64,000 bases of DNA, taken from positions 116,808,001-116,872,000 of the forward strand of contig OZ024741.1 of assembly GCA_964016885.1 (NCBI GenBank). The letters run 5' to 3'. How positions within the stretch are numbered: the stretch's first letter is position 1; each line of letters begins with the position of its first letter. The stretch is from Eledone cirrhosa. Lineage: Eukaryota. Of this stretch, positions 2,346 to 56,899 are shown one piece after another. Position numbers and translations under genes: made by a program. The notes under the pieces were generated by a model. It was not told where the DNA came from. It did no database searches and saw only the letters and a list, made by a program, of their open reading frames with translations.

Positions 2346-2549
2346 CTGTATTCATCAACAGAAATAGTGAAATGATCAAAGCTTATATCAAGGGAGCCAA
2401 CTGAGAAAAGTTAAACTAGAGTTGTCTACCTTAAAATGTAGCTTATAATTCGGAAATATTTGCTTAATAATTCTGAATTGGCAGTATCTGTAGAGTGCCG
2501 GACAACATGCTTTGTGGCATAGAGTTACAGCCCTTTATGTTCTGTATTC

Positions 2550-3238
2550 AAGCTGCTCTCACCCGCGCTCGTGAAACCGGCCGTACCACAGCCGTCTCAC
2601 CTCACCAGCGCCCTCCGAACACCTGCCTTCCTTTCCCTATCACTTACCACCCCATCATCTTACCTCTCCGGCGACATATTCTCCGTTTCTTCCGCACCCT
2701 CTCTTCTGACCCTGTCACTTCTTGCTTTTTTCCTAACCCACCTATCCCTGCTTTTAAGACCGCCCGTAATCTCCGCGACCTCCTGGGTACGCTTTCTTTC
2801 TCGTCCTCTCCTACGATACCACCCAGCTCTCATCTTTGTTCTCGTCCCCGCTGTAACACCCGTCCTTTCATTTCTACCCTCACCACTCTCACAGGCACCA
2901 ACAATTCATTCCGTGTCCGCCACCCCTTCACCTGCACCTCCACCCATGTTGTCCATGCCACCCGGTGTTCCCTTTGCGGGTCCTTATACATCGGACAAAC
3001 GGGACGCCCTTTGGTGGACCGTTTTGCTGAATATTTGAGAGACATACGACTCAGTATGGATACTCCCATCGTCTGTTATTTCCATTCCCCAGATCACTCT
3101 TCCTTACATGTCTCAGTCCTTGGTGTCCTTTTACATCACGGATCACAGGCTACACGCACCAGGACTGAACAGAGCCTGATTTACCACATTGGATCCTGTT
3201 TCCCTCATAGACTCAACTCCTCTCCCCAATTTCTTTAA
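2550..3238 (+). mobile_element. Penelope-like element C-terminal fragment with GIY-YIG endonuclease
   Basis: PITYHP...FKTARNLRDLL...CSRPRCNT...FTCTSTHVV...CSLCGSLYIGQTGRPLVDRFAEY...EQSLIYHIGSCFPHRLN: typical PLE Zn-finger linker plus GIY-YIG domain. Confidence 0.9.
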
Positions 3239-4890: not shown

Positions 4891-7811
4891 ATTAATGATA
4901 GAAATAGAAAGAATGTAGTAATTCTGATGATAAATCTCAACAATATGGCCGATGGAAAATACCTCAGGGGAGCTTCCTCTATGCTAAATAAACAGTCGTT
5001 CATGCTATTGGCCTGCAATTCCTAATAGGGACGGGTAATGATATATGTGGTAGCGTCGTGGACATTTAAACCTGGCAGAGCCCACACACTTCCAGTTATG
5101 AAAATAACCGATTTCTTCCCGAGGAAGAGAGATGTAGTAGGATAGAGATAAGAAGAAGACTCGACTCCTAGTATTTCACTGGTACTTTATTTATCAACAT
5201 TGAAAAAATGAATGGCAAAGTTCATCACAGAGAGTTTTGAAATCTGAGAATAATCAGCCGGAACGAATACCGCAAAACATTTTTCCCGACATTCTAACGA
5301 CTCTGCCAAGTCACTGCCTTTGTGGAGTCTCACATATTTAATATGAGTCGAAAAATTGATAAACTGAGATTAAACAACAACAAAAACAAAAAACTCAAAC
5401 AAGAATGTTTAAAATTCTGTTAAGTAAAAATAACAAAAACAACAACACAAGGGAGATAACTCCCAAAGACTATTACATTTGGACGTGGGCATTGCTAAGA
5501 AATTCGTTTCGCAATCATGGGGTTCTGTTATCGATCCTTAGGCATTGCATTTTGGGAAAGTGGCTTTAGCCTCACGTCAACCCATACCTTGTAAATGAAA
5601 TTGGGTTGACAGAAACTGAGTGAAAATTCGTCGAATTCAAACGTCACACTGATTCAACTTTCGAATTTATGTTAAGGGTACACGTGCCTGTAGAAAACTT
5701 AGCCCCTTCAATGTTAATTCAACTGTCGAACCTTCATTTGATCAACAAATTTACTGCTCGTCGTCAAACACTGACGGAGAATCCATGTTTCTAGTTATTT
5801 TTAAGTATACAGTTATGTCCCTTTCCGTTTTAAATTCAAATTGTACCAAGTGTCGACTTGCCTTTTGTTCTTACCAATCAAGTGATGAGACGATTTAGTC
5901 TACTGTTTCTCATCGTTTGAAATTTATGTCCCTGTGCTTTTGTTGGGAATCAGTACCTAAATTTATTCCCATGAAGGTGGCGAATTAGCAGAGTTATTAG
6001 GGCGATGGACTAAACATGCCTCGGTATTTGTTCCGGCTCATTTCGCACCCCCTTCTCTCTCTCACTTTCTCTGGAAGAACATGGTTGGGTACAAATTTAG
6101 AGAGTGGTGGGTTCCACCAAGTTTCAATGCCCAAGTTACACACAGTATGTCACTACGGCTCCCCTCGACTTTCTCTTTCTGGAGAGGGATGGGTTTCGCC
6201 AGGTTTAAAATGCCTAAGATATACCATGTGTTAGGACGCCGCCCATATGACCCCACGAGGGCCCGTAATTCCTTCTTGAAAAATATTCATTCATATAACG
6301 CATCTTAGATGTGAAAAAATAAGACACTAAGAAGGGGAGCAAAAAAAAATAATAATAATAAAATAAAAAAATAATCAATCAGAATGTTATTTATGTATAT
6401 ATTTAAAACTTAATAAAATGGAAAGGTTTGAATAAAATCAATCAGTTAAAACCTTTCATTTTTTAAATATGTTTATTATTTTTAATGTTTATAATATTCG
6501 GGGAAGGATTCAGGGAAACGTCTTTATAATTTGAAAACAATAAATACATATTTATATTTTACTTATCAACAGGTAGCTAGTGCTAATTTAAGATTGATAG
6601 CAGAGCCGGAAACTAAAATAATCACGTAAGCGACAGAAACATTACTTTTAAATCGTAGAATAGCAAAAACATAAATGTGAAACAGTTGAACATGTTGAGC
6701 AAATATTTACATTTATTTTGTATATTTGAGAATGTAAATTATTCCGAACTCTATATAATCGACTTGAAAAAAACAACAGACTAAAGTTTTTCGACAGTTT
6801 ATCATAAACAACCTTCAGGGTGGTATTTCTCTCCTAATATGAGTGCCGCCAGATATCTATTTATATGCTCAAGAAAACGATTGTGTTTAAAAACGTATAT
6901 ACTCTGTGTAGCTGTCCTTATTATATACTTAATAGTTTCATCTTCTTACTTCAAATTACCTCCGGTAAGGGAATACAAATATTTTTCCCCCGCTTCTTAT
7001 GCGATTGTTTACTAAACTTTTTAAAACATTCTCGAGTTATTAACGCTTTATCTTGCGCGCGCTCACACACGTGTATTAAAGTTACTAGATACAAACTAGT
7101 GTTTCATTTAATTCATTTAAGCCTATTTCTTTATATGTTTATGGAATTATTTATCTTTACATGTTTATCAACTTTATCTTTTCACTGCTTCGCTCTGTCT
7201 GCCTGTTTTTTCTTGTGTGCGTGCGTGTTTATAATTAAAACCTATTAATCCCCCCCCCCCCCCCCCCCCCTCATACTCTGCCTACCATGGACGTATTGTG
7301 GTCGAATGGTTGTTAAGAAGTTCGTTTCGCAATCATTAGGTCTCGAGTTCAAAGCATCTTAGGCAAGTTTAATTTATGATAAACCTCGGATCGACCTATG
7401 CCAAGCTGCAGAAATGTTGTTTTCGTACGTAAATATATTTTATTGGGATCTCAAGTGTATAAATATAGTTTGTTTACATTAATTACATTTTCATGAGGGT
7501 ACCTGGCTATTCCAGCAATTTGGTATCTCTCGTGGTAATGCCGTGTGTCCTGGCTTGCATCAAAAAGTTTTAGAGAACAACATCAGCATTCCCTGTTGTG
7601 TTTAATTGCGTGTGTATGTCTCCATTCTTTTTTCTTCTATAGGACTACCATAACCCCTTTTACATAGTCTGTGCCTAGCTTTAAAACTTACTTTCAAACT
7701 TGCGTCGTGAATATTACAGAATAAAAAAAATCAAATATATTCAAAACGGCGTCTTTCTTACGGCAGGCAGGCAGGTTTTGTTGGCCACGCTGAGGCTCAT
7801 ATCTTTGCCTA

Positions 7812-8210
7812 ATACACTGGCCCTATCTCCGAGCTATATGGCTATTATATCGATGCCTGCATCGGCACCCCTCACTCTCCCAGAATAGCTCGACTCCTAT
7901 CTGTCTTTCCTCTGCCTTTTCCACTCCTCCCTCGATTTCACTACCTTCATCTCCACCACCACCGTCCACTTACTGGATATCTCTGTCTCCATTGACCCCT
8001 CCCATTGTTCCCTCATCACCTATGTCTTCTTCAAGTCCACTGACACCCACTCCTACCTTAGCTTCACCTCATCCTACTCTACTCATACTAAACACTACTT
8101 CTCTCAATTCCTCCACTTCCGCTGTCTGTGCTATCAAACCCATGATTTCAAAATACAGGCTTATTGCACGACTAGACTCGTAGCTAGGTGAGGTTACCCT
8201 TCACCCTAGG
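7812..8210 (+). mobile_element. Degenerate Penelope-like RT fragment
   Basis: Frameshifted YTGPISELYGYYIDACIGT...SSLDFTTFIS...LLDISVSI...FKSTDTHSYLSFTSS...SQFLHFRCLC, corresponding to the PLE RYIDD / FLD / KPTD.H.YL / SQFLR blocks. Confidence 0.75.
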
Positions 8211-12150: not shown

Positions 12151-13159
12151 AATGGAAATTATATAATGTGGTGAGCTAAACTGTAGTCAACCAAATTTCA
12201 GTGACAATGATGTTGAAGATAAGAAACTGGATTAACAACCAAGAGTTTAGCAGTTCATATATCACTAACACTACATTTTGTCTGTAGTCAAAATACTTCA
12301 CCCTTAAAATGACACATTCTGCCTTGCTGTAAATAAAAAAAATTTATAAACAAATTTTATTTCCATAAATATTTCGCATAATAAACAAAAATAGTGATAA
12401 CAATAATTAAACAATGCAAAAAAAAGAAATAGTAGGCTAAAGGAAGGAACAGATTCTACACTCCTATCTAGGATTTGTATCTCAGCTGCCCCCTGCCTAT
12501 CTTTTGGACAAGGTGGCGAAAACATTGTCACAGAGAACAGCCAGCAACACCCACTGCATCAGCCATCTACCTCACAGGGCATTTTTCCCAGTTTTATGGA
12601 GGCAAATTGTAGTCTGGGGACTGAGGAGACTGGAGGCCTTGATGCAATCAGAATGAAAATGAAGTAGTTGAGGAAGTTTTGGTACTTTTTCTCTGTATTA
12701 CTATTGGCAGTGTACAAGTTGGTGGCTGATGAGACAAGGCTGGAGGGAGAGAACATAAATTATTACTACAGAATAGGAGGGCGGTGGATTGGCAGTATGG
12801 GTAGCATGCTTCCTGGCATAGAGTTATGGCCCATTAAGTTCTGATTTCAAATCCTGCCAAGATTAACTTTGCCTTTCTTCCTTACAGGATTGGTCTACAG
12901 AATAAGAACAGTTAATTTCAGTTATATGCTGAATCACATTAATATTCCTTGCAGCGACAGTCTCGATAGAATAAGCTTTAGCTTAGTTTCAACCAGTTGT
13001 CTCTGCATGTATAAGCATCATCATCATCATCATCTTTGTACTAAATCTGTTTTCCATGCTGACATGGGTTGGATGGGTTGCCACGTTCTGAGATTGGACA
13101 GGTCAGATAACTATGTCTTATATGTTCCATTTTGGTATGAATTCTTGCACTTAATTCAG

Positions 13160-15743: not shown

Positions 15744-15781
<38 letters not shown>

Positions 15782-15824
15782 ACAATAGTAATAAATGGAA
15801 AATATCACTATAGCATCATATTTA

Positions 15825-15880
15825 TTTTATTATACATATTTCAAGGATACTAAATTATAGTATGCTTTCATCAGATAAAA
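15825..15880 (-). ncRNA. Minimal type I hammerhead ribozyme motif
   Basis: ttttat CTGATGA aag-c-atacta(taatt)tagtat-c-ctt GAAA T atgt ATA ataaaa. Stem I is 6 bp perfect and an AATAAA follows. Confidence 0.8.
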
Positions 15881-16121
15881 TACAATATTTGAAGTATATG
15901 ATAGTGACATACCCAAAAAGCATACTACAATTTAGTATCCTTGAAATATGTAAAATAAAATAAATATAATGCTATAGTGATATTTTCCATTTATTACTAT
16001 TGTTAATATTATAATACTCCAGATAAAATTTAGCTGTAGAGTGTTTAATATCTGTTATGAACATAACTCTGTTGAATACTTATCAACAAATCATATAACT
16101 CATTGTTTATATATATGTATA

Positions 16122-17224: not shown

Positions 17225-20200
17225 CATCATCATCATCAACGTTTAACGTCCGTGTTCCATGCTTGCATGGGTTTGGACGGGGGTAGTCCCACTTGAGGCA
17301 AGAGTGATTGTCTTGCTCGCATAGGACTGTCTGGCAGGTTTTCTACAGTTGGATGCCCTTCCTAACACCAACCACATTTACAGTGTGGGTCTGGGAGGTT
17401 TTTACCGTGTTGCCTACACGGCCACATTACAGCGTGGACTGTGTGTTTTTTTGTCGTGACACCTACACGATCTCATTTGTTTCGGCCTGGATGGCGCGGC
17501 ACCAACATAACTTTACATAGAACGGGGTGGTGTGGATGGGGTGGGGGTGGTGGCGGGACGGGGTGTATTTTGTTAGAGATGCCTACTGGCAAGGCGGGTC
17601 TTCTCTGTTACTGAGTACCGCCAAAGGTCTCGGTCCAGTGACATTGTCTTGGAGAGGTGTAAGTGTGTGAGGTCGGAGTTTATCAGCTCATCCCAGGTTT
17701 TTCTAGGTCTGCCTATTCCGTGGCTACCGTCTATCTTTATTGCCCTGCACTTTGTTATACAGCTATCGACTTTCATGCGCATCACGTGTCCATACCAACG
17801 CAGCCTTCTCTCGAGTAAACAACATCTGATCCCTCTTATCTCTAATTTTTTCCTTAGTTCGTTTATGCTTTGCCGTTCACGTATATTACTGTTACACATC
17901 CAGCGGAGCATGCAAGCTTCGTTCCTCTCTAGTCTGCGTATATCCTCTGCACACAATGCCCAGGTCTCACTACCATGCAACATTGCTGTTCGTATGCAGG
18001 CATCGTACAACCTGCCTTTCATTTTTAGGGAGAACCCTTTAGCAGCTAATAGTGGTATAAGCTCTCTGAACTTTTTCCAACCAGTTCTGACTCTAGCTAC
18101 AGTACTTTCAGAGCACCCTCCTCCACTGCTGATTTTATCGCCCAGGTAACGGAAGCTGTCCACTATTTCTATAGAACCCTCTGCGCAATTGAAAGAGCTA
18201 GTATTTTGTGGGTACTTGCTGCTACTTATTGCACCAGAACACCGGCCACATGTAAAATCTATGTTCTTAGTTAGCTTACCTGTGATCCCACTACATCTTT
18301 TATGCACCCATACTTTGCATTTAGGACATAAAATGGAGTTTCTACCTACGCCTTTCCTACACACCGAGCACGACCATTTCCCAGAAGGGACCGCCGCCTT
18401 GTTTTCTTTCCTACAAACTAGAACTTTGGTCTTAGCCAGGTTAATTTTAAGTCCTTTTGACTCTAGGCCGTGCTTCCATGTTTGGAATTTCTTCTCTAGC
18501 TCGGCCATTGATTCCACTATGAGTGTCAGGTCGTCTGCGTATAGGAGTTCCCATGGGCAGCCTGTCTTGAACTCCTCTGTTATAGCCTGAAGGGCAATAA
18601 TAAATAGTAGGGGGCTGAGAACAGAGCCCTGATGGACGCCAACTTTTACGCTAAACTCTTCACTATATTCGTTGTTAATTCTAACCTTGCTGACTGTTTC
18701 TTTATACATGGCTTGTATAGCCCTCACAAGCCATTCGTCAACGCCTAGTTTTCTAAGAGCCCACCAGATAATGGAGCAGGGAACTCTGTCGAAGGCTTTC
18801 TCCAGGTCGACAAAAGCTAAGTAGAGGGGTTTACCTTTAGCTAGGTACTTCTCCTGTAGTTGTCGTACTATGAAAAGAGCGTCTGTGGTGCTTTTGCCTG
18901 ACACAAACTCGAACTGCATTTCATCTAGGTCAATTCTCTCTCTGATTAGTTGCGCTATTACTTTTTCCGTGACCTTCATGACCTGGTCGATTAATTTAAT
19001 GCCTCTATAGTTACTCCTATCTAGGGCGTCTCCTTTACCCTTATAACAGTTAACGATGATGCTGCTATGCCAGTCCTTCGGAACAACCCCATTCTGTACG
19101 ACTTGGTTAACTATGCGGGTGACCATGGTGTGTCCCACCGTGCCAGATGCCTTCAGCATCTCAGCAACTATTTCCGAAGGCCCAGCCGCCTTACCCGTCT
19201 TCATATCCTTGATTGCCTTACTTATTATACTCCCCTCGACTAACACTGCTGGTCCCTCTATTGGGTCGATATGGGGGAGACTGTCTTTCTCCCATTTATT
19301 CTCCTCATTTAGTAGCCTTTCATAGTGACACTTCCAAGCTACCTTCTTATCAGTGTCGGTGATGGCAAGTATGCCATCATCGTTAAGTACACACTTCTCC
19401 CCGACAATATCACGGTTTTCCTTGACGCATTGCCTAGCAATCCTGAACACTTCACGTTTTTGGTCATCGCGTTGTAGAACATGCTTGAACTTTCTTTCCT
19501 CAGCTTCCCTTCTTGCTAAGTACACTTCTCTCCTAGCTTCCCTCCTGGCCACTTGATAGTCTACTCTACTTCCCCCGTCCCGCCATACTTTCCAAGCCTG
19601 CTTTTTGGCCTTAATTGACCCCTCCACCCTACTGTTCCACCACCATGTTACTCTCCTCCTGCCTACAGGCCTGCTCCAGCCACAGACTTCGTCTGTCGCC
19701 AACAGCAGGTTTGCTTTCAGAAATTCCCACTGTCCCTCTATATTGTCCGATTCTAGATGCTCTTCCTTACTGTCGAAAGCATCAAGTAATATGCTTTGAA
19801 ATTTATTTCTGGCTGTGGGGTCCTTTAGTTTCCATATTTTCCTCCTGAGGATAGTCCTCTTCTGCTGTCGAGTACGTCTCGTCCTGACTATGAGGTCGCT
19901 AATTATCAGTCTATGTTGGGAGGTGCATTCTTCATGGGGGAGGGATTTAGTGTTTACAACAGACACTCTGTCACGTCTTCTGGTAAGGATATAATCTACC
20001 TGGCTTGTGTGTTCCCCGGATCTATAGGTGATCAGGTGATTGTCACGTTTTTTGAAGTTAGTGTTACAGATAGTTAGGTTATTTGCAACACAGAATTCCA
20101 GGATTCTGGAGCCTTCCTCATTTCTAGTACCAAACCCATAGCCTCCATGGATTTCGTCGTAGCCGTCACAATGTTGTCCAACGTGACCATTTAGGTCGCC

Positions 20201-20409
20201 TGCAATAATTATATAGTCACTGTCAGATATTTGGGAGGTAGTTAGCAACAGTGTCTCATAGAATCTGTCTTTTATAGTGCCGGGCAGTCCGGATTGGGGT
20301 GCGTACGCAGATATTACTGTCACCGTAGTTCTATTGAGGACAAGTCGTATTTTAATTATTCTGTCGTTCACTCTATTTACGTCTATTATCTTATCTGCCC
20401 ACTTTTCTG

Positions 20410-20412
<3 letters not shown>
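17225..20412 (-). mobile_element. RTE-clade LINE, 5'-truncated, uninterrupted ORF (APE-RT-PHD finger), 3' UTR and (GAT)n tail
   Basis: ORF 17573-20412 has APE motifs (SAYAPQ, GDLNGHVG, DYIL), RT motifs (YRGIKL, FVDLEKAFD, GVHQGSVLSP, YADD, FRYLG) and C4HC3 CSVC..C..C...VHKRC...CGRC. Confidence 0.97.
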
Positions 20413-20462
<50 letters not shown>

Positions 20463-20463
20463 C

Positions 20464-20508
<45 letters not shown>

Positions 20509-20524
20509 TATATGATATATATAT

Positions 20525-20558
<34 letters not shown>

Positions 20559-20573
20559 ATATACGTGTAATAT

Positions 20574-20968
20574 ACAGTAATATACGTGAACGGCAAAGCA
20601 TAAACGAACTAAGGAAAAAATTAGAAATAAGAGGGATCAGATGTTGTTTACTCGAGAGAAGGCTACGTTGGTATGGACACGTGATGCGCATGAAAGTCGA
20701 TAGCTGTATAACAAAGTGCAGGGCAATGAAGATAGACGGTAGCCACGGAATAGGCAGACCTAGAAAAACCTGGGACGAGCTGATAAACTCCGACCTCACA
20801 CACTTACACCTCTCCAAGACAATGTCACTGGACCGAGACCTTTGGCGGTACTCAGTAACAGAGAAGACCCGCCTTACCTAAATACATAGTAAAATCTACT
20901 ACAGCCAGTAGGCATCTCTAACAAAATACCCCCCCCAACGTTAAACGTTGATGATGATGATGATGATA
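20574..20968 (+). mobile_element. Inverted 3' fragment of the same RTE family, with the 3' UTR internally deleted
   Basis: Near-identical reverse complement of ~17570-17892. Ends in aacgttaaacgtt(gat)n. Confidence 0.92.
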
Positions 20969-21758: not shown

Positions 21759-24700
21759 AGAAGGAAAGGGACCAGAACCAACTGGACGAAAGAAATGAAT
21801 AGAGCTGTTATGCAATGTTACCTGAAGAGTAACCCCAAGGAAAAAGGCTATAGGAAACGGATGCATAACATCTGGAACGAGATTGGTCTATTTAAATTAG
21901 ATGAACAAAAATTGGCCGGGCAGGCTCGGGTAATAAGAACTAATGGGTGGATAAGCGAGCTGGAACTGGAGGAACTGAGCAGAGAGATTAGGTTGGAAAT
22001 GGAGAGTGGAGTATGCCAGGCAAACGAGCCAGTAGGAAATGAAGGTGAAGAGGTTGAGAGAACGGAGGAACCATCCGAAGCAGACAATGATCTGAATGCT
22101 GAAATAAATAATACCTGGAACAAAGATACGGCCATTGAGGAAATGAATGCTGACGGGCTAGGACAAGATTTGGTTGATATCCTAAACTTAGTGGTAGATG
22201 AAATGAACAATGATAGTGGGAAACCTATGAACCTAAGATTTGTAGACAGGAAAAAGTTAAAAGAAACAAGAGCTAAAGTAAACAAAGTCATCCCATACCT
22301 TGAGGCGAGGAGCCTTCACCAATGCAACAATATCCTCAAAGCAACAGAAAATGCGGTGAGGAAATTACTTGGCATAAAAGCAAGAGGAAACAACAAACAA
22401 GAAAGATCAGAACCTTGGTGGAAGAAACGACTGAATGGTCAAATCAAGGAAATGAGAAATGACATTGGAAAGCTTGAGTCCCTACTGAATGGGACACTAA
22501 AAAACATACACACTAAATATAGACTGGAAATACAAAACTCGGAGGAAAAAGTTAAATATTATTATAGAGGAACTGAAGCTACCCATTGTAGCAAAGAGTG
22601 CAAAAATTAGGCGATACGAGAGCAGAGTCAGTCAGTATAGACAGAACCGCATGTTTGACAACAACCAGAAGATGTTTGGACAGCTTGAAGGGAAAGAAAG
22701 AGGCAACGACTTGATCCCTGAGGTGGAACAAACTAAGACATTCTGGAGAGGAATATGGGAGCAGGATGTTAAACATAATGACCAGGCAGTCTGGATTGAG
22801 ACAGTTCAAAAGGAGATTGGTGAACAAACACACCAACATAGCTGAAACTCTTGAAGGGCAGGCCAAAAAACTAACCAACTGGAAATCACCAGGCCCAGAT
22901 GGTGTGCAAGGGTATTGGATTAAAAATATAACGTCCCTCCACCCAAAACTGACAACCATGTTCAATGACTGCTTGATGTCAAGTGAGGTTCCAGAGTGGT
23001 TGACAAAAGGTATCACAGTTCTGGTAATGAAAGACCGAATCAAGGGTAATGATGTTACCAACTATAGACCTATCACATGTCTGTCTGTAATGTGGAAACT
23101 GTTGACAAGCATTGTGTCTGAGGAAATCTACCATCACCTCCACACAAACAACTTGTTACCGGACGAACAGAAAGGGTGCCGAAAGAAGTCCCGTGGTACA
23201 AAGGACCAGTTACTTATTGATAAGATGGTAATGAGGAATTGCAAGAGGAGACACACTGGTCTTGCCATGGGATGGATAGACTACAAAAAGGTATTTGACA
23301 TGGTGCCTCATTCTTGGATCACCAAAAGCCTAGAGATCTTCAAGGTGGCAGATAACATCAGACAGTTGTTGAGCAAAAGTATGAAGTCCTGGAAAACAGA
23401 GTTAACATCAGCTGGAGAATCCTTGGGAGGCGTGAAGATCAAGAGAGGTATCTTCCAGGGAGATAGACTCTCCCCTCTGTTGTTTGTCTTGCCCTGAGGC
23501 CCCTGACCATTATACTGCGAAAAGTGAGAGCAGGATACAAGTTGGGAAAAGGAGAGCTTACCATCAATCACCTCCTCTTCATGGACGATCTTAAGCTCTT
23601 CGGGAAGAGTGAGAAGGAGTTGGATGTGCTTGTTGACACTGTCCGTATTTTCAGCAATGATATATGTATGCAATTTGGTATTAGTAAGTGTGGTGTCCTT
23701 GTGATGAAGAGGGGTAAATTGAGCAGAAGCAACGTAATCCAGGTACCAGCAGGTGAGATGATAAAGGAAATTGACACTGAAGAAAGATACAAGTATTTGG
23801 GTGTTCTGGAGGCTGATGACATCAAGAACAAAAACATGAAGGAATTGATAAGATCTGAATACATTCGGAGAGTAAGGAGCATATTAAAGTCACATCTGAA
23901 CAGTAGGAATGCCATAAGTGCAGTAAATTCCCGAGCTGTGTCTATTATTAGGTACAGTGCTGGAATTCTGAGATGGAATGTTGCCGAACAAAAAGAAATA
24001 GATAGGAAGACCAGGAAGCTACTGACTATCTACAACATATTCCACAAGAGGAGTGATGTCGATAGACTCTACTTAAGGAGATCAGCATTGAGGACTGTGT
24101 TCAGATGGAGAAAAACAACCTACACAAATACGTGACTGATAGTAGGGAGCCAATGCTCAGAATTGTACTGAAGGAGAGGACAATAGACCAGGGGATGTCC
24201 AAGGAGGAAATAACAACAAGGAGAAAGAGCAACCTTCATGAAAAATCCCTTCATAGTGCCTTCTTTGAGAAAACTGAATTCAGAGATCCACAGACATGAA
24301 ACTGGTTGAAAAAAGGAGACCTTAAAAAGTCTACAGAAGGAATGCTAATGGCTGAGCAAAAGCAGGCCCTCAAAACGAAGTGGCTGAAACACCATATTTA
24401 CAAGGAGGAGGCTAGCCCACTGTGCAGGATCTGTGGAGAGAGAGAGGAGACTGTGGCTCACATTGTATCTGAGTGTAAACACCTAGCCCAGACTCACTAT
24501 AAAGGCTGGAGACATGATGTGATAGGCAGGCTGATCCACTGGCACCTATGCAAAGTAAACAATTTACCACATTCTGAGAAGTGGTATGAGCATAAGCCAG
24601 AGTCGGTGATAGAAAACGATCAGGTGAAGGTGCTGTGGGATTTTAGGATACAGACGGACAAGAAACTGGAACACAATAGACCTGACCTGGTGGTTTTTGA

Positions 24701-28361: not shown

Positions 28362-28395
<34 letters not shown>

Positions 28396-28412
28396 GTATA
28401 TATATATATATA

Positions 28413-28775
28413 TTAAACATACGGTATATTGCCAAATATACTATACATACATTCATGTATACATCGCTATTTCAGAGCACCAACCCTAATATCTAATTTT
28501 TGCTGGACCGGCAATCACTCTGTGTAATCAGCTCCTGATTATTACTGGAATTCTATAAGAATCCATCTTCTATAATTTTTGGCGAAAGCAGGGGAGTACG
28601 TGGCTCTGATGAACGCCAACCAGCATGAAACAGGCTGTCAGCTTCTCTCCCTTCTTTCACCGAAAAGAAGTGACATAGTCACTACTTTAAAACTGATAGC
28701 GTATGGTCTTCTAAATGTTTTTAATTTAACATATAGTATGTTGCCAAATATACTATACATACATTCATATATATA
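28413..28775 (+). mobile_element. Retrozyme-like element, ~312 nt monomer plus partial repeat, HHR at 28602-28643
   Basis: ggct CTGATGA acgc caacca gcat GAAAC aggct GTC agct. gccaaatatactatacatacattcat occurs at 28431 and 28743. TA flanks. Confidence 0.8.
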
Positions 28776-29238
28776 TCTATGTATATCATCATCATCACCA
28801 TTTTACGTCCGTTCTTCCACGCTAGCATGGGTTAGACAGGTTGTCCTGCCGTGGTCAATGTACGGTCGGCTGACCTTGTCTTGATCATACGGGAACTGAT
28901 TCTGGCTTGATTTCTACAGCTGGATACCCTTCCTAACACCAACCTCATATACAGTGTGTGCTGGGTGCTTTTTTTTCCCATGGCGCCTACACGTTCACTT
29001 TACAGTGTGGGCTGGGTGCTTTTTTGCCGTGGCACCTCCACGACCTCTTTGCAGTGGAATGATAAGGACCCCAGTCCTATCATCTCATTTCTACTGCTGA
29101 GTAAACTGGAGCAATGTGAAATAAAGTGTCTTGCTGAAGGAAACAACACATCACCCGGTCCAAGAATTGAACTCACAACCTTTCGATTGCAAGCCCAATG
29201 CTCTAACCACTAAGCCATGCGTCTTCATATATATATAT

Positions 29239-29404
29239 TGTCATATACAATTGTCACTGCTGGCGCAGCTCCTGCTTCGGCAGTCCAGGTCTGCAATTCA
29301 TTCACCCAGTGCCTGGCAGACAAAAAAGTGCTGCCATAAAATGGGTGGTGCAACCTAACTTTGGTAACTTAATGACCCCGAGCAACGCCGGGCTTTAATG
29401 CTAG
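29239..29404 (+). mobile_element. Helitron 3' end fragment (inverted copy of the adjacent element's end)
   Basis: cccgagcaacgccggg hairpin then CTAG|T. Reverse complement of 29484-29645. Confidence 0.8.
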
Positions 29405-29483
29405 TATATAAATATATATATATATATATCAGTTCCCGTATGATCAAGACAAGGTAGTATATATATATATATATATATATATA

Positions 29484-30589
29484 CTAGCATTAAAGCCCGG
29501 CGTTGCTCGGGGCCAGTAAGTTACCAAAGTTAGGTTGCACCACCCATTTTATGGCAGCACTTTTTTGTCTGCCAGGCACTGGGTGAATGAATTGCAGACC
29601 TAGACTGCCGAAGCAGGAGCTGCACCAGCAGTGACAATTGTAGTTTCGCCTATGGATATTATCTCTGTGCAAAGAAGTGTTGAAATTTATTGTTTCACAG
29701 TACTTGCGCAACACGCACGTAGACGATGCCAGCTGAACAACAGAGCTGTGATGGAGTGGTTCTGCATGGTTGTCTAATGTGTGTTTTCTAAATTTAAGAC
29801 AGTAGGGAGGGGTGTGATATGGGGGAGAGTTAGCTGCTGTTTCTAGCAGGTTTAGTGACCTCATAGAGGATATGTGTTTTCTAAATTTAAGACAGTAGGG
29901 TGTGGTGTGATATGGAGGAGAATTAGCTGCTGTTTCTAGCAGGTTTAGTGACCTCATAGAGGATATGTTTTCTAAATTTAAGACAGTAGGGAGTGGTGTG
30001 ATAGAGGGGAGAGTTAGCTGCTGTTTCTAGCAGGTTTGGTGACCTCATAGAGGATATTATTGTGTATAGTAAATAAACTGATACTTCTTTCTTCCACGTT
30101 CGTTGAGAGGTTTTAAAAAAGATTTATCGCTATTTTTTTTGTTGTTGAATAAATTTATCTGTTGCTTTTGAATAATTGTTGTTTCATATGAAATGTAATA
30201 AGTTCTCTTTGTCATTGAAGTAAATAAATGTTTGACCGTTCCACACTCAAAAACAAACGTTCTCTCTCTCTCTCTCCCTCTCACGCTCTTCTCTCTCTCT
30301 CTTCGGCGTTCCTAAAGGAAGTTTGTAAGCATGTATATAGTTTTATTGAATTTTAAGGGGAGTAGAGAGAGGTAATCAGATTCTATTAGAGGGGTAAAGT
30401 GTCATGTATTTAGTTTTATCGATTATTTCCATAATTGTGGGTGAGTTTGAATGAAATAAATAGTCGTTGACCTAAGACCATTTACAACATTCTTACAGAC
30501 TTTGAGTCGAATCGGTTTGAAATTGTGCAAATGTATAAACATGGAACATGTACACACAACAACAACAATCTGCCTTTTATAGATAATGA
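29484..30589 (-). mobile_element. Non-autonomous Helitron with three internal ~94 bp tandem units (29779-30056)
   Basis: 3' CTAG with subterminal cccgagcaacgccggg hairpin, and 5' a|tcattatctataaaaggc on the minus strand. Confidence 0.75.
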
Positions 30590-31194
30590 TATATATATAT
30601 ATTTAGTGGTCAGAGCATTGGCCTTGCAATCAAAAGGTTGTGAGTTCTATTCTCGGACCGGGTGATGTCTTGTTTCCTTGAGCAAGACACTTTATTTCAC
30701 ATTGCTCCAGTTTACTCAGCTGTAGAAAGGAGATGATAGGACTGGGGTCCCTATCATTCCACTGCAAAGTGGTCATGGAGGTGCCACGGCAAAAAAGCAC
30801 CCAGCCCACACTGTAAAGTGGACGTGTAGGCGCCACGGAAAAAAAAAGCACCCAGCACACACTGTAAATGAGGTTGGTGTTAGGAAGGGCATCCAGCTGT
30901 AGAAATCAAGCCAGAATCAGTTCTCGTATGAGCAAGACAAGGTCAGCTGACCAGACACTGCCCACAACAGGACAACCCGTCTAACCCATGCTAGCGTGGA
31001 AGAATGGACGTAAAACAGTGATGATGATGATGATATGTATGTATATATATATATATATGTATGCATGTATATATATACATATATATGTATGTATATATAT
31101 ATACATATATATGTATGTATATATATACATATATATGTATGTATATATATACATATATATGTATGTATGTATATATATACATATATATGTATGT

Positions 31195-31798
31195 GGCCAT
31201 TGACTCCTAAGAGCTCCTTTGCTCTTTGACAGGTTTTGTTTTTAGTCCTGCAGGATGTCCAAAGTCACCCTCCTCACCAAGAAATCTTGGTGGGGTTGCC
31301 AGTTTAGTCGCCAACGACCCGACTATGAGACAGGTTGTACTGGGATACATGTTACCAGTAGCACCAACTGGTGACCTGATAAAATCACCGGGAGAGATGA
31401 CCCCTTAGCCTTTGTCAAGGCAGAATTCTAGGAGAAGGAAAGCTCTGATATAACATCTGCAACTCTGATGGTATCCAATGATGTTGACTTGTTCTTCTTT
31501 TTGGTAAATATCATCTTGGTTAAGAGAGTGGGACTGGCTTTGTGCAGTGCCTTTGCTCACTATAAAAGCTTCACGGCACAGGCATTGCTTTATATCTGGA
31601 GATCTCTCTGCACTTGTCATCACATGGTACCATGCGCCCTGCACTATGTGTCAATAATTGTCACAAGTGTAGTGTTTGTACCAGAGTTTTCAAGTCACTG
31701 GCTGGACTAAAAAGTCACACTCGTTCAGCGCATCGGTAGGGGTTCTCCTACATGGATATAAAGTAGTGGCCGTACTCGAAAACGAGTTGGCAGCCACC
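31195..31798 (+). mobile_element. Degenerate LINE (probably RTE) 3' end with C2H2 finger
   Basis: IWRSLC...[17 protein letters not shown]. The 3' part is repeated at 48490-48712, and both are flanked by (TATG)n. Confidence 0.55.
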
Positions 31799-32393
31799 AT
31801 ATATGTATGTATGTATATATATACATATATATGTATGTATGTATGTATATATATACATATATATATATGTATGTATGTATATATATACATATATATGTAT
31901 GTATATATATACATATATATGTATGTATATATATACATATATATGTATGTATGTATATATATACATATATATGTATGTATGTATATATATACATATATAT
32001 GTATGTATGTATGTATATATATACATATATATGTATGTATGTATGTATATATATACATATATATGTATGTATGTATGTATATATATACATATATATGTAT
32101 GTATATATATACATATATATGTATGTATGTATATATATATATATTAAGTGTATTGAGTTCAAATCTCAAGCATTCCTTTACAATGAAAATAGCTCCAAGA
32201 AAAGAATATTTCTGTGCCATGTAATAAATACAAATCAATATATATGATGAAACACAGATACCAACATATCTTTGTTTATATAGCAAAAGGAATAAAGTTA
32301 GCTAGAATGAAATATACTAATTATAATATTACAGCCTGCCTACATCGATTTAAAATAATAAATCAACACAAACAAACAGTATTGGCAAATGGC

Positions 32394-32463
<70 letters not shown>

Positions 32464-32725
32464 ATATATGTTTGTATATGTATGTATGTATATATATGTT
32501 TGTATATGTATGTATGTATATATATGTTTGTATATGTATGTATGTATATATATGTTTGTATATGTATGTATATATATATATGTTTGTATATGTATGTATA
32601 TATATGTTTGTATATGTATGTATGTATATATATGTTTGTGTATGTATGTTTGTATATATATGTTTGTATATATATGTATGTGTATGTATGTATGTATATA
32701 TATATATGTATGTATATATATGTAT

Positions 32726-32766
<41 letters not shown>

Positions 32767-32768
32767 TA

Positions 32769-33480
32769 TCATCATCATCATCAACGTTTAACGTCCGTGT
32801 TCCACGCTTGCATGGGTTTGGACGGGGGTATTCCCACTTGAGGCAAGAGTGATTGTCTTGCTCGCATAGGACTGTCTGGCAGGTTTTCTACAGTTGGATG
32901 CCCTTCCTAACACCAACCACATTTACAGTGTGGGTCTGGGAGGTTTTTACCGTGTTGCCTACACGGCCACATTACAGCGTGGACTGTGTGTTTTTTTGTC
33001 GTGACACCTACACGATCTCATTTGTTTCGGCCTGGATGGCGCGGCACCAACATAACTTTACATAGAACGGGGTGGTGTGGATAGGGTGGGGGTGGTGGCG
33101 GGACGGGGTGTATTTTGTTAGAGATGCCTACTGGCTGTAGTAGGTTTTACTATGTATTTAGGTTACTGAGTACCGCCAAAGGTCTCGGTCCAGTGACATT
33201 GTCTTGGAGAGGTGTAAGTGTGTGAGGTCGGAGTTTATCAGCTCGTCCCAGGTTTTTCTAGGTCTGCCTATTCCGTGGCTACCGTCTATCTTTATTGCCC
33301 TGCACTTTGTTATACAGCTATCGACTTTCATGCGCATCACGTGTCCATACCAACGTAGCCTTCTCTCGAGTAAACAACATCTGATCCCTCTTATTTCTAA
33401 TTTTTTTTTTCCTTAGTTCGTTTATGCTTTGCCGTTCACGTATATTACTATTACACATCCAGCGGAGCATGCAAGCTTCG
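32769..33480 (-). mobile_element. RTE LINE 3' end (same family as 17225-20412)
   Basis: Near-identical to 17225-17922, including the 3' UTR and (GAT)n tail. Confidence 0.95.
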
Positions 33481-33500
33481 TGTGTGTATGTATATATATG

Positions 33501-33531
<31 letters not shown>

Positions 33532-33570
33532 GTATGCATATATATGTATGTATATTGATGATGATGATAC

Positions 33571-33601
<31 letters not shown>

Positions 33602-33784
33602 TATGTATGTATATATATATATGTATGTATTTATATATATGTATGTATATATATATATGTATGTATATATATATATATGTATGTATTTATATATATATGT
33701 ATGTATATATATGTATATATGTATGTATATATATGTGTATATATATGTATATATATGTATATATATGTATATATATATATGTAT

Positions 33785-34756
33785 GAAGGGAAGCAGAGGA
33801 AAGAAAGTTCAAGCATGTTCTACAACACGAGGACCAAAAATGTGAGGTGTTCAGGATTGCTAGGCAATGTGTCAAGGAAAACCGTGATATTGTCGGGGAG
33901 AAGTTTGTACTTAATGATGATGGCGTACTTGCCATCACTGACACTGATAAGAAGGTAGCTTGGAAGTGTCACTACGAAAGCTACTAAATGAGGAGAATAA
34001 ATGAGAGAAAGACAGTCTCCCCCACATCGACCCAATAGAGGGACCAGCAGTGTTAGTCGAAGGTAGTATAATAAGTAAGGCAATCAAAGATATGAAGACG
34101 GGTAAGGCGGCTGGGCCTTCGGAAATAGTTGCTGAGATGCTGAAAGCCTTTGGAACGGTGGGACACACCATGGTCACCCGGATAATAAACCAAGTCATAC
34201 AGAATGGGGTTGTTCCGAAGGACTGGCGTAGCTGCATCATCATTAACTGCTACAAGGGTAAAGGAGACGCCCTAGATAGGAGTAACTATAGAGGCATTGA
34301 ATTAATCGACCAGGTCATGAAGGTCACGGAAAAAGTAATAGCGCAACTAATCAGAGAGAGAATTGATCTAGATGAAATGCAGTTCGGGTTTGTGTCAGGC
34401 AAAAGTACCACAGACGCTCTTTTCATTGTACGACAACTACAGGAGAAGTACCTAGCTAAAAGTAAACCTCTATACTTAGCTTTTGTCGATTTGGAGAAAG
34501 CCTTCGACAGAGTTCCCCGTTCCATTATCTGGTGGTCTCTTAGAAAACTAGGTGTTGATGAATGGCTTGTGAGAACTATACAAGCCATGTATAAAGAAAC
34601 AGTCAGCAAGGTTAGAATTAACAACGAATATAGTGAAGAGTTTAGCGTAAAAGTTGGTGTTCATCAGGGCTCTGTTCTTAGCCCCCTACTATTTATTATT
34701 GCCCTTCAGGCTATAACAGTGGAGTTCAAGACCGGCTGCCCATGGGAACTCCTATA
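33785..34756 (+). mobile_element. RTE LINE central RT segment in the opposite orientation, running into the gap
   Basis: [10 protein letters not shown]...FVDLEKAFDRVPR...GVHQGSVLSP...CPWELL, with one frameshift and one stop near 33975-34005. Confidence 0.95.
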
Positions 34757-34956
34757 NNNNNNNNNNNNNNNNNNNNNNNNNNNNNNNNNNNNNNNNNNNN
34801 NNNNNNNNNNNNNNNNNNNNNNNNNNNNNNNNNNNNNNNNNNNNNNNNNNNNNNNNNNNNNNNNNNNNNNNNNNNNNNNNNNNNNNNNNNNNNNNNNNNN
34901 NNNNNNNNNNNNNNNNNNNNNNNNNNNNNNNNNNNNNNNNNNNNNNNNNNNNNNNN
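34757..34956. other. Assembly gap (200 N)
   Basis: Run of n. Confidence 1.
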
Positions 34957-35100
34957 AATATGGTTCAAAATGTTATCCACCTCCTGGGTGATTTTTATTA
35001 TATTTTTACCCATAATCTTCCAATACTTTAGTGTATGTACACTCCATATTCTTCGGAGTTTTCGGCTTGTATTGGCCGATAGTACTTCTTGTGGTTTTGA

Positions 35101-35143
35101 TTGCCCTGATGAGTCCTTAATAGGACGAAACATTGTTGGCTAA
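35101..35143 (+). ncRNA. Minimal type I hammerhead ribozyme motif
   Basis: ttgcc CTGATGA gtcc ttaata ggac GAAAC att GTT ggc(t)aa, followed by AATAAA. Confidence 0.85.
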
Positions 35144-35400
35144 TAAAGACTTTTGATGTATTGAAGGCTTCTTTGTTTTATTTTCATAATATATATATAT
35201 ATATATACATATATATGTTAAGTATTTCCGAAGAAAAAGCAAAGGAAAAATGGGTGCTCTATGTATAGAACAGAGCTATTTAATTAGAAAGTGAACAACC
35301 TCTCTGCCTGATGAACGATCTAGGCGTATGTTAATATTATCTAGGCTGCTGAAACCTTTGGTAATGGAGTAGTTATATATTGTGTTGTTCACTTTCCACT

Positions 35401-35437
<37 letters not shown>

Positions 35438-35481
35438 AAGTTAAATAAAAGTCAAATGATTAAAATTTAGCTTCGTTTATT

Positions 35482-35536
35482 ACTGCTATATATATTTCAG
35501 TGACAGCCATCTTTGGCTGTCACCTCTTCAGGCAGT
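35482..35536 (-). ncRNA. Type I hammerhead ribozyme motif
   Basis: actgc CTGAAGA ggtgacagcca aaga tggctgtcact GAAA T atat ATA gcagt AATAAA. Confidence 0.88.
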
Positions 35537-35647
35537 TTGAATTAGTATGGTATAGACAAGTACATATGTTGTTTAGATGTATGATATTGTCAATACTCTG
35601 ATATGCCCAGTTCCTTGCTGGGTTGTTAATTCACTGGGGAACTGGAG

Positions 35648-35693
<46 letters not shown>

Positions 35694-35711
35694 ATTCACT
35701 GGGGAACTGGA

Positions 35712-35754
<43 letters not shown>

Positions 35755-35932
35755 AGCTAATTAGAACACTCGATTAATCCCTTTACTTCCCTCCAAAGAA
35801 GAGGTATTATCTCGAAAATTAAGGATATTTAAATAAATTTAAGGTAAAAGACTAATTGTCAACAATATCTTTTGCATTTGCATTTATATTCTATATCCAT
35901 ACCTGCATTGTATTGGCCTTCCAACTCCAAAC

Positions 35933-36006
<74 letters not shown>

Positions 36007-36170
36007 ATAAGACAGTATATAGAGAAAAATACACAATGAGGTATGTGTTGAATTATAGGGGATATAATACCACCAGAGTGAAAAACATAGTGTCTACGAA
36101 AGGAATGGAGAATACATATCAATTAGAAGAATAAATTAAACTGTACAGACCTTCCGTGTATAACTATAAA

Positions 36171-36247
36171 CACATGGACATGCTCTATAGTATGTTTCGC
36201 CACTAATAAAGTGTAGATTCATACCGTTGACGGCTTATCAACAGGTG
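36171..36247 (-). ncRNA. Hammerhead motif with U3:A8 core, inside an element with ~80 bp inverted ends (36006-36085 / 36322-36400)
   Basis: cacctg TTGATAA gcc...ggc GAAAC atactatagagcat GTC catgtg. Confidence 0.65.
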
Positions 36248-36492
36248 GACCAACAATATATCAGATAACTAGTATACACACATGGTGGGAAGAGAAAACA
36301 TGCACGCTATATAGCCCATAGTTTTTACCCTGGTGGTATTCTATCCCCTATAATTGAACACATACCTCTTTGTGTATTTTTCTATATATACTGTCTTATA
36401 AAGAACTCGGAATCGATTCCTTGAGCTCATCAAATTATAAGGGATTAACATGAGTCTTTAACTCGGTTTTTTTATTCGGTATATATATATAT

Positions 36493-36950
36493 ATTAGGAT
36501 TGGTGCTCTGAAATACCGATGTATACACGAATGTATGTATAGTATATTTGGCAATATACTATATTGTTTAATTGAAACATTTAGAAGACCATACGCTATC
36601 AGTTTTAAAGTAGTGACTATGTTACTTACTTCTTTTCGGCGAAAGGAGGGGGAGAAGCTGACAGTCTGTTTCACGCTGGTTAGCGTTTATCAGAGCCACG
36701 TACTCCCCTGCTTCCGCCGAAAATTACAGAAGCTTTATTCTTATAGAATTCCAGTAATAATCAGGAGTTGATTACACAGAGCGATTGCCGGTCCAGCAAA
36801 AATTAGGTATTAGGATTGGTGCTCTGAAATAGCGATGTATACACGAATGGATGTATAGTATATTTGGCAATATACTGTATGTTTAATTAAAAACATTTAG
36901 AAGACCATACGCTATCATTTTTAAAGTAGTGACTATGTCACTTACTTCTT
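36493..36950 (-). mobile_element. Retrozyme-like element, 316 nt monomer x ~1.45, HHR at 36656-36697
   Basis: Same family as 28413-28775. ggct CTGATAA acgc taacca gcgt GAAAC agact GTC agct. A ~140 bp direct repeat occurs at 36493 and 36809. Confidence 0.8.
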
Positions 36951-37189
36951 TTTTTTTTAACTCAAAATACACGGAACCAGATCAGATGCCGCAAAGCATC
37001 CCATCCAACTCTTTAATAGATCTCCCAATTAATTCTATTGACTTGTTAATCATTTTCTACACCGTGGGGATGAAAGGCAAAGTTAACCTCGACAGGATTT
37101 AAACTCATTGAGTCGGAACAAATATCAGAGTAATTAATCCGACGCCCTTACGACTCTGCCTATGTGCCACCTACACACACATAAATATA

Positions 37190-56258: not shown

Positions 56259-56548
<290 letters not shown>

Positions 56549-56899
56549 TAAAAATAACAGGTTCATTCATGTTGACATCTCTTGTGTGTGTGTGTGTATC
56601 TAAATCTGTATATATGATGGACTCTCCCATCGATTTCGACGTATAAGAATCCGAACAACGTATTCAGTTCATTCAGTTTGGATGTTTATGTCGGGCATGA
56701 CATTATAGACCTGCTAAGGATTTGTAAGCAAGTCCTCAGATTGTGCAATGGTGAGGTTTACAGGATAATGTTGCTGGTATGTTTGATAATGCTTTTCTCC
56801 TGCCTCTGTCAGTATATATATATATACATATACATACGTGAATTTGTATATATGGCGATTTACCGTGTTTCATATACAAAGCTATGTTAGAGTTAATGC

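Follow-up and report, generated by a model that had tools for sequence, protein, structure and literature searches.

A 316-nt retrozyme-like hammerhead repeat in Eledone cirrhosa, with (TA)n-abutting ends that resemble those of Penelope-like elements

The non-LTR (long terminal repeat) retrozymes of animals are repeats of 170-400 nt with a type I hammerhead ribozyme; they occur as circles in coral, mussel and axolotl, and Penelope-like elements (PLEs) have been proposed as their mobilisers (PMC7229834). Metazoan PLEs themselves carry mostly minimal hammerheads, whereas those of retrozymes are canonical (PMC4209133, PMC7229834). Retrozymes co-occur with PLEs, show pseudo-long terminal repeat (pLTR) homology in Xenopus and are frequently monomers (bioRxiv 10.64898/2026.07.22.740005), and copying of circles into cDNA of more than unit length is an already proposed model (PMC7761336, PMC4209133). 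Both the mobilising enzyme and the use of the circle as a template have so far been argued from co-occurrence and homology, and a 2020 review states that retrozyme repeats hold no motif pointing to a partner (PMC7761336). Here we describe a 316-nt hammerhead repeat, very probably retrozyme-like, that is present in two copies (A and B) in 64,000 nt of the Eledone cirrhosa genome (assembly GCA_964016885.1, contig OZ024741.1, positions 116,808,001 to 116,872,000 of the forward strand). This whole stretch is called the window and is numbered from 1.

PLE insertions provide the second point of comparison. They show 5' truncation, partial tandems, tails and (TA)n targeting, and the Hydra clade inserts into (TA)n (PMC8557442). 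In a green anole PLE, an AC-rich stem-loop contains two internal start sites for reverse transcription, and the stretch from one to the other makes up an optional tail of 30-40 bp; the targets of this element are AT-rich, and hammerhead cleavage is dispensable in vitro (PMC11167929). PLEs with tandem hammerheads have also been described (PMC7229834).

The two copies (Table 1) are 91% identical in BLAST (338 of 371 positions, E = 1e-149, 28412-28777 (+) against 36952-36492 (-)), and BLAST finds no third copy of the unit in the window. Each copy repeats part of itself: 28412-28465 recurs at 28724-28777 in copy A (48 of 54 positions matching, period 312), and 36952-36808 recurs at 36636-36492 in copy B (138 of 146, period 316). 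Within the unit, neither limit of the duplicated part is the same in the two copies. An initial annotation had described the loci in just these terms, as one non-coding unit, each copy longer than a monomer of 312 or 316 nt and with unlike limits to the duplicated segments, and the alignments bear it out. Because 4 nt are present in both halves of copy B and absent from copy A, 316 nt is the likelier family period. The last unambiguous unit base of copy A is 28766, beyond which its end merges into (TA)n up to 28777. With its length of 312 or 316 nt and a GC content of 38-39%, the unit falls within the ~150-450 nt and the GC below 50% expected of the short non-coding units of retrozymes.

Table 1. 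Positions in the window of the two repeat copies, their ribozymes and ends, and the Penelope-like fragment
Feature	Position	Strand	Basis or remark
Copy A, ~1.15 units of the 312/316-nt repeat	28412..28777	+	BLAST
Copy B, ~1.45 units, period 316	36492..36952	-	BLAST
Type I hammerhead of copy A	28588..28661	+	core from 28606; Rfam HH9 alignment
Type I hammerhead of copy B	36641..36712	-	core 36693-36687; sequence inspection
Recurrent family 3' end, into (TA)n	36522..36529	-	contig loose ends at 36522
~30-nt extension of copy B past the recurrent end, candidate PLE-type tail	36492..36521	-	BLAST, alignment
(TA)6 immediately 3' of copy B	36480..36491	.	sequence
(TA)n-type microsatellite 5' of copy A, likely target site	28362..28411	.	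TRF 28362-28413
Hydra-clade PLE fragment, hammerheads and (TA)n at both ends	51594-53016		open reading frame (ORF), ATG 51795; tblastn, motifs

Each copy holds one hammerhead, and neither holds two. Stem I, formed by GGCU and AGCU, continues past a UAC bulge into a long lower helix; it is followed by CUGAUGA, by a stem II of 4 bp closed by a 6-nt loop, by GAAA and, after a short stem III, by GUC, with cleavage predicted after C28639 in copy A and after C36660 in copy B. The open stem I, the conserved core and the loop 1-loop 2 contact residues are those of a canonical type I hammerhead, which carries a single lesion in each window copy: loop II of copy A is CAACCA and its stem II has one C.A mismatch, and copy B has a G8A change at 36688 and a loop II variant at 36682. 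Inspection of core and stems thus confirms the one ribozyme per copy and the two lesions that had been reported for this DNA. The loop II consensus given with them (uaacca) was incorrect: the family majority is CAACCA, and the presence of C at 36682 in 99% of the family depth marks uaacca as a private variant of copy B. The associated proposal that each copy supplies the intact base of the other stands for G8, which makes up 95-96% of the family depth, while for stem II the base is deduced only from its having no entry among the 40 of 76 variants listed.

At the gathering threshold, Rfam gave no match anywhere in the window. At a relaxed threshold, copy A aligned with Hammerhead_HH9 (RF02275, clan CL00010) over model positions 1-77 of 77 (18.8 bits, with a gathering score of 52; E = 0.046), and the UAC bulge, CUGAUGA, CAA in loop II, GAAAC and GUC all fell in register with the model. 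Copy B gave no Rfam hammerhead match at E up to 5, and the window-wide list by E-value consists, among the matches listed, mostly of microsatellite matches to microRNA models. The full-length alignment with the core in register indicates the same type of ribozyme, but the upper stem I of the unit is shorter and its score lies below the gathering score; the unit is not a member of the HH9 family. Stem III is pseudo-palindromic, two copies of it cofolding at -11.4 and -8.3 kcal/mol as against 0 for a lone 12-mer, so that dimeric cleavage is possible.

A coding role for the unit was rejected. The longest ATG-started frame within it has 78 aa, no endless frame runs around it, and the 92-aa antisense frame of copy B has no relatives among 1.84 billion proteins. 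A tblastn comparison with 120 Hydra-like proteins also gave no match on the unit. No ORF for reverse transcriptase (RT) and GIY-YIG endonuclease is linked to either copy, and none is attached to the repeat among the contigs listed from public sequencing runs (described below). Folded as circles, the natural monomers reach -73 and -82 kcal/mol, below all 150 of 150 shuffles (z = -3.6 and -5.5).

To see the family beyond the window, we compared contigs from three public runs, all from one sample and one study and none on record as RNA, with one monomer (36500-36815) at 80% likeness (16.3-17.1 million records per run). The runs contain 44-54% of the words of copy B, and 3930, 4172 and 4539 contigs match, covering all 29 bins of the unit; these counts and the summed depth are not a copy number, and the runs are perhaps not independent of the source of the window. 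The unit has many divergent genomic copies. Among the 40 of 76 variants listed, none besides G8A falls within CUGAUGA, GAAA or the GU preceding the cut. The head-to-tail joint from 36815 to 36500 is present in 8, 6 and 8 contigs; since the joint lies inside the duplicated part of copy B itself, it confirms the period but not full dimers. As for tandem copies with two complete hammerheads, the window copies have one each, and the contigs, which are short, together cover its every position. A divergent subfamily, seen at the loose ends 36636 and 36737, differs on both arms of the lower stem I; its two consensuses appear complementary by eye, a hint of covariation that perhaps comes from different contigs. 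Two metagenome loci found with a 20-nt stretch matched only 22 nt of the unit, had no hammerhead stems and were dismissed as chance.

These data bear on the nature of the template. Both copies wrap into the unit upstream of the hammerhead, which implies that the template had a 316-nt period, that is, a circle or a multimer. Such a wrap at a one-unit period is not expected of a solo terminal repeat, and a truncated coding PLE would lead into its ORF. The copies could still be 5'-truncated ends of an autonomous PLE with tandem 316-nt hammerhead units in its terminal region and no separate retrozyme RNA: PLE insertions are 5'-truncated, tailed and fond of (TA)n (PMC8557442), tandem hammerheads are on record for PLEs (PMC7229834), and such ends are common in the window. 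We regard this as unlikely, because the wrap enters the unit rather than coding sequence, the share of matching contigs continuing into unlike sequence is 0 in all three runs, and no loose end among those listed reaches other sequence (short contigs could miss a rare linkage). The lack of protein relatives and of tblastn matches to the Hydra-like proteins, and the canonical rather than minimal hammerhead, point the same way.

The retrozyme-like identity proposed in the initial annotation is thus supported by the canonical type I hammerhead, the length of ~316 nt, the GC content, the absence of protein relatives, the wrap-around and the abundance of the family, and we hold it with high confidence. 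The metazoan non-LTR retrozymes (Cervera and de la Pena 2020, PMC7229834; Li, Clavereau and Pollet 2026) likewise have a non-coding unit of 170-400 nt with GC below 45%, a canonical type I hammerhead with a short stem III, copies longer than the unit, a structured monomer and PLEs in the same genome. The active retrozyme of the preprint, in contrast, has two complete motifs, whereas copies A and B carry one hammerhead each and therefore fail this definition, and the family is known here from DNA alone. No cephalopod retrozyme was found in print by a search that was thin on subscription journals and repeat databases and did not extend to supplements. The element itself is ordinary: repeats of its kind are on record for numerous invertebrate phyla, a mollusc among them; what deserves note is the signature at its junctions.

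The family ends recurrently at one place. Among the loose ends of the contigs (18 listed of 693), ten continue the unit itself and are clipped where an indel or the edge occurs, four belong to the divergent subfamily, and one plus three are (TA)n ends. In 24, 33 and 31 contigs of the three runs the unit is left at 36522 for (TA)n and then mixed sequence, and a minor (TA)n end at 36541 is seen in 6 contigs; those at 36559, 36564, 36575 and 36804 were not accepted as termini, being continuations of the unit. The recurrent end coincides with the 3' end of copy A. The site, in AC-rich sequence directly past a predicted hairpin, is 131-138 nt downstream of the ribozyme cut, and because the unit is TA-like at 36522 its position is blurred by ~7 nt. 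Copy B ends ~30 nt (range 27-37) beyond copy A, and neither copy ends at the ribozyme cut. The 9-nt TATGTATAT flanks copy A on both sides and is indistinguishable from microsatellite; a target-site duplication was rejected, the candidates being this microsatellite word at copy A and an offset 8-mer at copy B.

Both the partial tandem with a variable 5' end (in two copies) and the AT-rich or (TA)n target are features of PLE insertions. The published ones (Frangieh et al. 2024, PMC11167929; Craig et al. 2021, PMC8557442) likewise have an internal AC-rich 3' end downstream of the hammerhead and away from the cut, an AT-rich or (TA)n target and a variable 5' end, and their optional extension may have its counterpart in the ~30 nt of copy B; they differ from the unit in carrying an RT or GIY-YIG ORF, in their period of ~3 kb against one of 316 nt and in their minimal hammerhead. 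Non-autonomous Chlamys derivatives of PLEs such as MRC1 (PMC8557442) are likewise non-coding head-to-tail insertions with PLE-type structure, but these are algal, their 3' end is like that of their partners, and most Chlamys elements lack hammerheads. In the available main texts of PMC7229834 and bioRxiv 10.64898/2026.07.22.740005 the word "tail" does not occur and no (TA)n junction is given; the literature available to us (PMC8969392 and PMC8967140 among the texts) held no description of this family or of retrozyme tails, which is not proof of novelty.

The ends of the repeat resemble those of other hammerheads in the window. Under a strict stem filter, (TA)4+ begins 82-199 nt downstream of the core in all nine motifs (9/9). 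In a hand-picked set, 13 of 14 have a downstream (TA)4+, as against 3 of 14 in the upstream mirror; three core-like matches at 12621, 21822 and 25185 were left unscored, with no stems seen, which would bring the tally at worst to 13/17. The background of (TA)4+ is 15% for a band of 80-200 nt, chosen after seeing the data, and 24% for 55-240 nt, and the motifs are not independent, since they include families and inverted pairs. A suitable enzyme is also represented (Table 1): the frame 51795-52889 aligns with residues 1-365 of a homologue (P0001) at E = 1e-135 and contains RWK, DKT and YRDD, and CxCx5C is present in 107 of 120 of its homologues. This fragment carries the marks of the Hydra clade, and as that clade targets (TA)n, PLE machinery with this target exists in the genome. 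The suggestion that PLE machinery mobilises the repeat gains support from these (TA)n-abutting ends, which are like the PLE ends of the window.

A rival reading is the free permutation implied by the initial annotation: priming would occur at many points of a retrozyme circle, guided by short TA or A microhomology to the target, and both ends could then fall anywhere. The two copies do differ at both ends, as had been claimed, and all four junctions show short T/A-rich microhomology; the minor end at 36541 and the other 675 of the 693 loose ends leave room for scattered ends, and cDNA of more than unit length from circles is a published proposal (PMC7761336). On the other side, the end of copy A is recurrent and is the only strong flank-type loose end among those listed, copy B ends ~30 nt beyond it, which fits two fixed RT starts with variable 5' truncation, and elsewhere in the window hammerhead-bearing ends fall within a narrow range downstream of the ribozyme. 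Permutation is therefore probably not random, the offset of copy B having the size of a PLE tail, and we give free permutation only a modest chance.

Permuted pieces are also produced by DNA circles and by recombination. The copies might accordingly be fragments of a satellite array, dispersed at the DNA level by recombination or extrachromosomal circles, with the hammerhead as a relic; copy B has no clear target-site duplication, and Xenopus multimers cluster at centromeres and telomeres (bioRxiv 10.64898/2026.07.22.740005). A directional (TA)n junction downstream of the hammerhead, common to PLE ends, and a hammerhead core that is mostly intact across the family speak against such an origin, which we consider very improbable.

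We favour, as reasonably probable from the sequence evidence, a non-LTR retrozyme whose insertion used PLE-type target-primed reverse transcription, begun at a preferred start of a template that was circular or multimeric. A locus with at least two units would be transcribed and its hammerheads would cut, possibly as dimers through the pseudo-palindromic stem III; the monomer would be ligated to a circle, or an uncut multimer would persist. The RT-endonuclease of a PLE would then nick (TA)n, and reverse transcription would begin inside the RNA, at the AC-rich site downstream of the cut or at an alternative start ~30 nt further (the tail). Having passed the hammerhead and one unit length, it would halt at a variable point, which would leave copies of one unit and a fraction with preferred 3' ends and variable 5' ends. 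Copies A and B would be decayed products of this process, each with one damaged hammerhead and unable to release monomers on their own. DNA alone cannot tell a circle from a linear multimer as the template, and the sharing of variants between the halves of a copy does not separate the two.

It is possible, though we put it forward only tentatively, that the junctions record a Penelope fingerprint in full: two fixed internal RT starts separated by ~30 nt, insertion into (TA)n, and an RT that reads through an intact hammerhead on its way around a 316-nt circle. If so, the case for retrotransposition of retrozyme circles by PLE proteins, which now stands on co-occurrence and pLTR homology, would gain direct mechanistic evidence, and the unit would offer a minimal template of 316 nt, its start site already mapped, for a cell-free test or the existing in vitro PLE assay. 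A family with a PLE tail and (TA)n ends would reduce the question of the partner to counting ends.

Several observations weigh against the favoured mechanism. Only two copies are seen whole, and the count of ends is based on 18 of 693 loose ends. The end ~30 nt further is known from copy B alone, the reference monomer being cut 6-8 nt from the end of copy B, and by simple arithmetic chance alone would place two ends of a 316-nt circle at 25-45 nt from one another in ~13% of cases. Because the unit is TA-like at 36522, microhomology or unrelated microsatellite contigs may inflate the pile there; a control over 24-31 nt found 0 non-family matches within the window, which is weak for a large genome. 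Inverted PLE pairs in the window have ends that differ in length by 72 and 90 nt rather than by 30-40, and a comparison of the unit with 11 other hammerhead-bearing ends of the window showed nothing in common beyond (TA)n. There is no full dimer among the contigs, and none of those listed covers the entire unit. At the ribozyme, the family depth shows U for the cut-site C in 13-20% and a broken first pair of stem II in 8-11%, and for Xenopus one of nine retrozyme dimers was cleaved in vitro (bioRxiv 10.64898/2026.07.22.740005). The antisense strands fold well too (z = -3.2), so that structure is no proof of RNA, and the active hammerhead fold is predicted to lie 8-12 kcal/mol above the minimum-energy fold; the nearest-neighbour models used penalise three-way junctions and ignore tertiary contacts and Mg2+. 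In the preferred rod predicted for copy B, stem III is paired to the start of the core and stem I to the cut site, a hint that the rod could shield a circle from recutting.

The Hydra-clade fragment shows a further peculiarity in its orientation. A hammerhead (core from 51747, -) sits 48 nt upstream of the ATG, in antisense orientation to the ORF. The ORF is intact from its start to YRDD and is broken there, an inverted copy of the hammerhead end follows (52935, +), and (TA)n is reached at either outer end. Should RT have started at these outward ends, the RNA that was copied would be antisense to the ORF; the word "antisense" is absent from the available text of PMC8557442. No solved structure was found for the Hydra-like homologue.

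At least six hammerhead families lie within the 64 kb. An inverted pair of hammerhead ends at 41024-41438 (41211, -; 41341, +) is 96% identical, with a length difference of 90 nt and no ORF, and a related copy at 15780-15990 (motif at 15874) has a short inverted upstream piece and likewise no ORF; both are typical inverted PLE structures. At 34957-35190 a small hammerhead (core from 35106, +, GUU cut) ends in (TA)n, and an ATG-started frame on the opposite strand overlaps the ribozyme and enters an assembly gap, possibly the start of a second antisense PLE ORF. Hammerhead-like motifs at 35433-35640, 42463-42640, 45720-45870, 46160-46365 and 56364-56600 each have a (TA)n downstream end; those at 35531 and 42559 are 77% alike, and those at 45762, 46208 and 56472 are single. 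Decayed frames at 2477-3238 and 7794-8191 resemble, by eye, a PLE endonuclease of the GIY-YIG type, with a CxxC upstream of it, and a piece of PLE RT. Pfam gave no match on four PLE-like frames of the window.

The window as a whole is AT-rich animal DNA, rich in (TA)n microsatellites (106 TRF entries) and in fragments of long interspersed nuclear elements (LINEs), as well as in repeats like short interspersed nuclear elements (SINEs), the last of which look octopus-like. Pfam RVT_1 matches two LINE frames, at 17576-20608 and 22718-23494; the first of these (-) is a frame of 1011 codons with endonuclease, RT and a PHD-like finger, a nearly intact LINE, and related LINE pieces lie near 20537-20881 and 33935-34757. 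A frame at 53685-54158 resembles, by eye, a fragment of a Helitron helicase.

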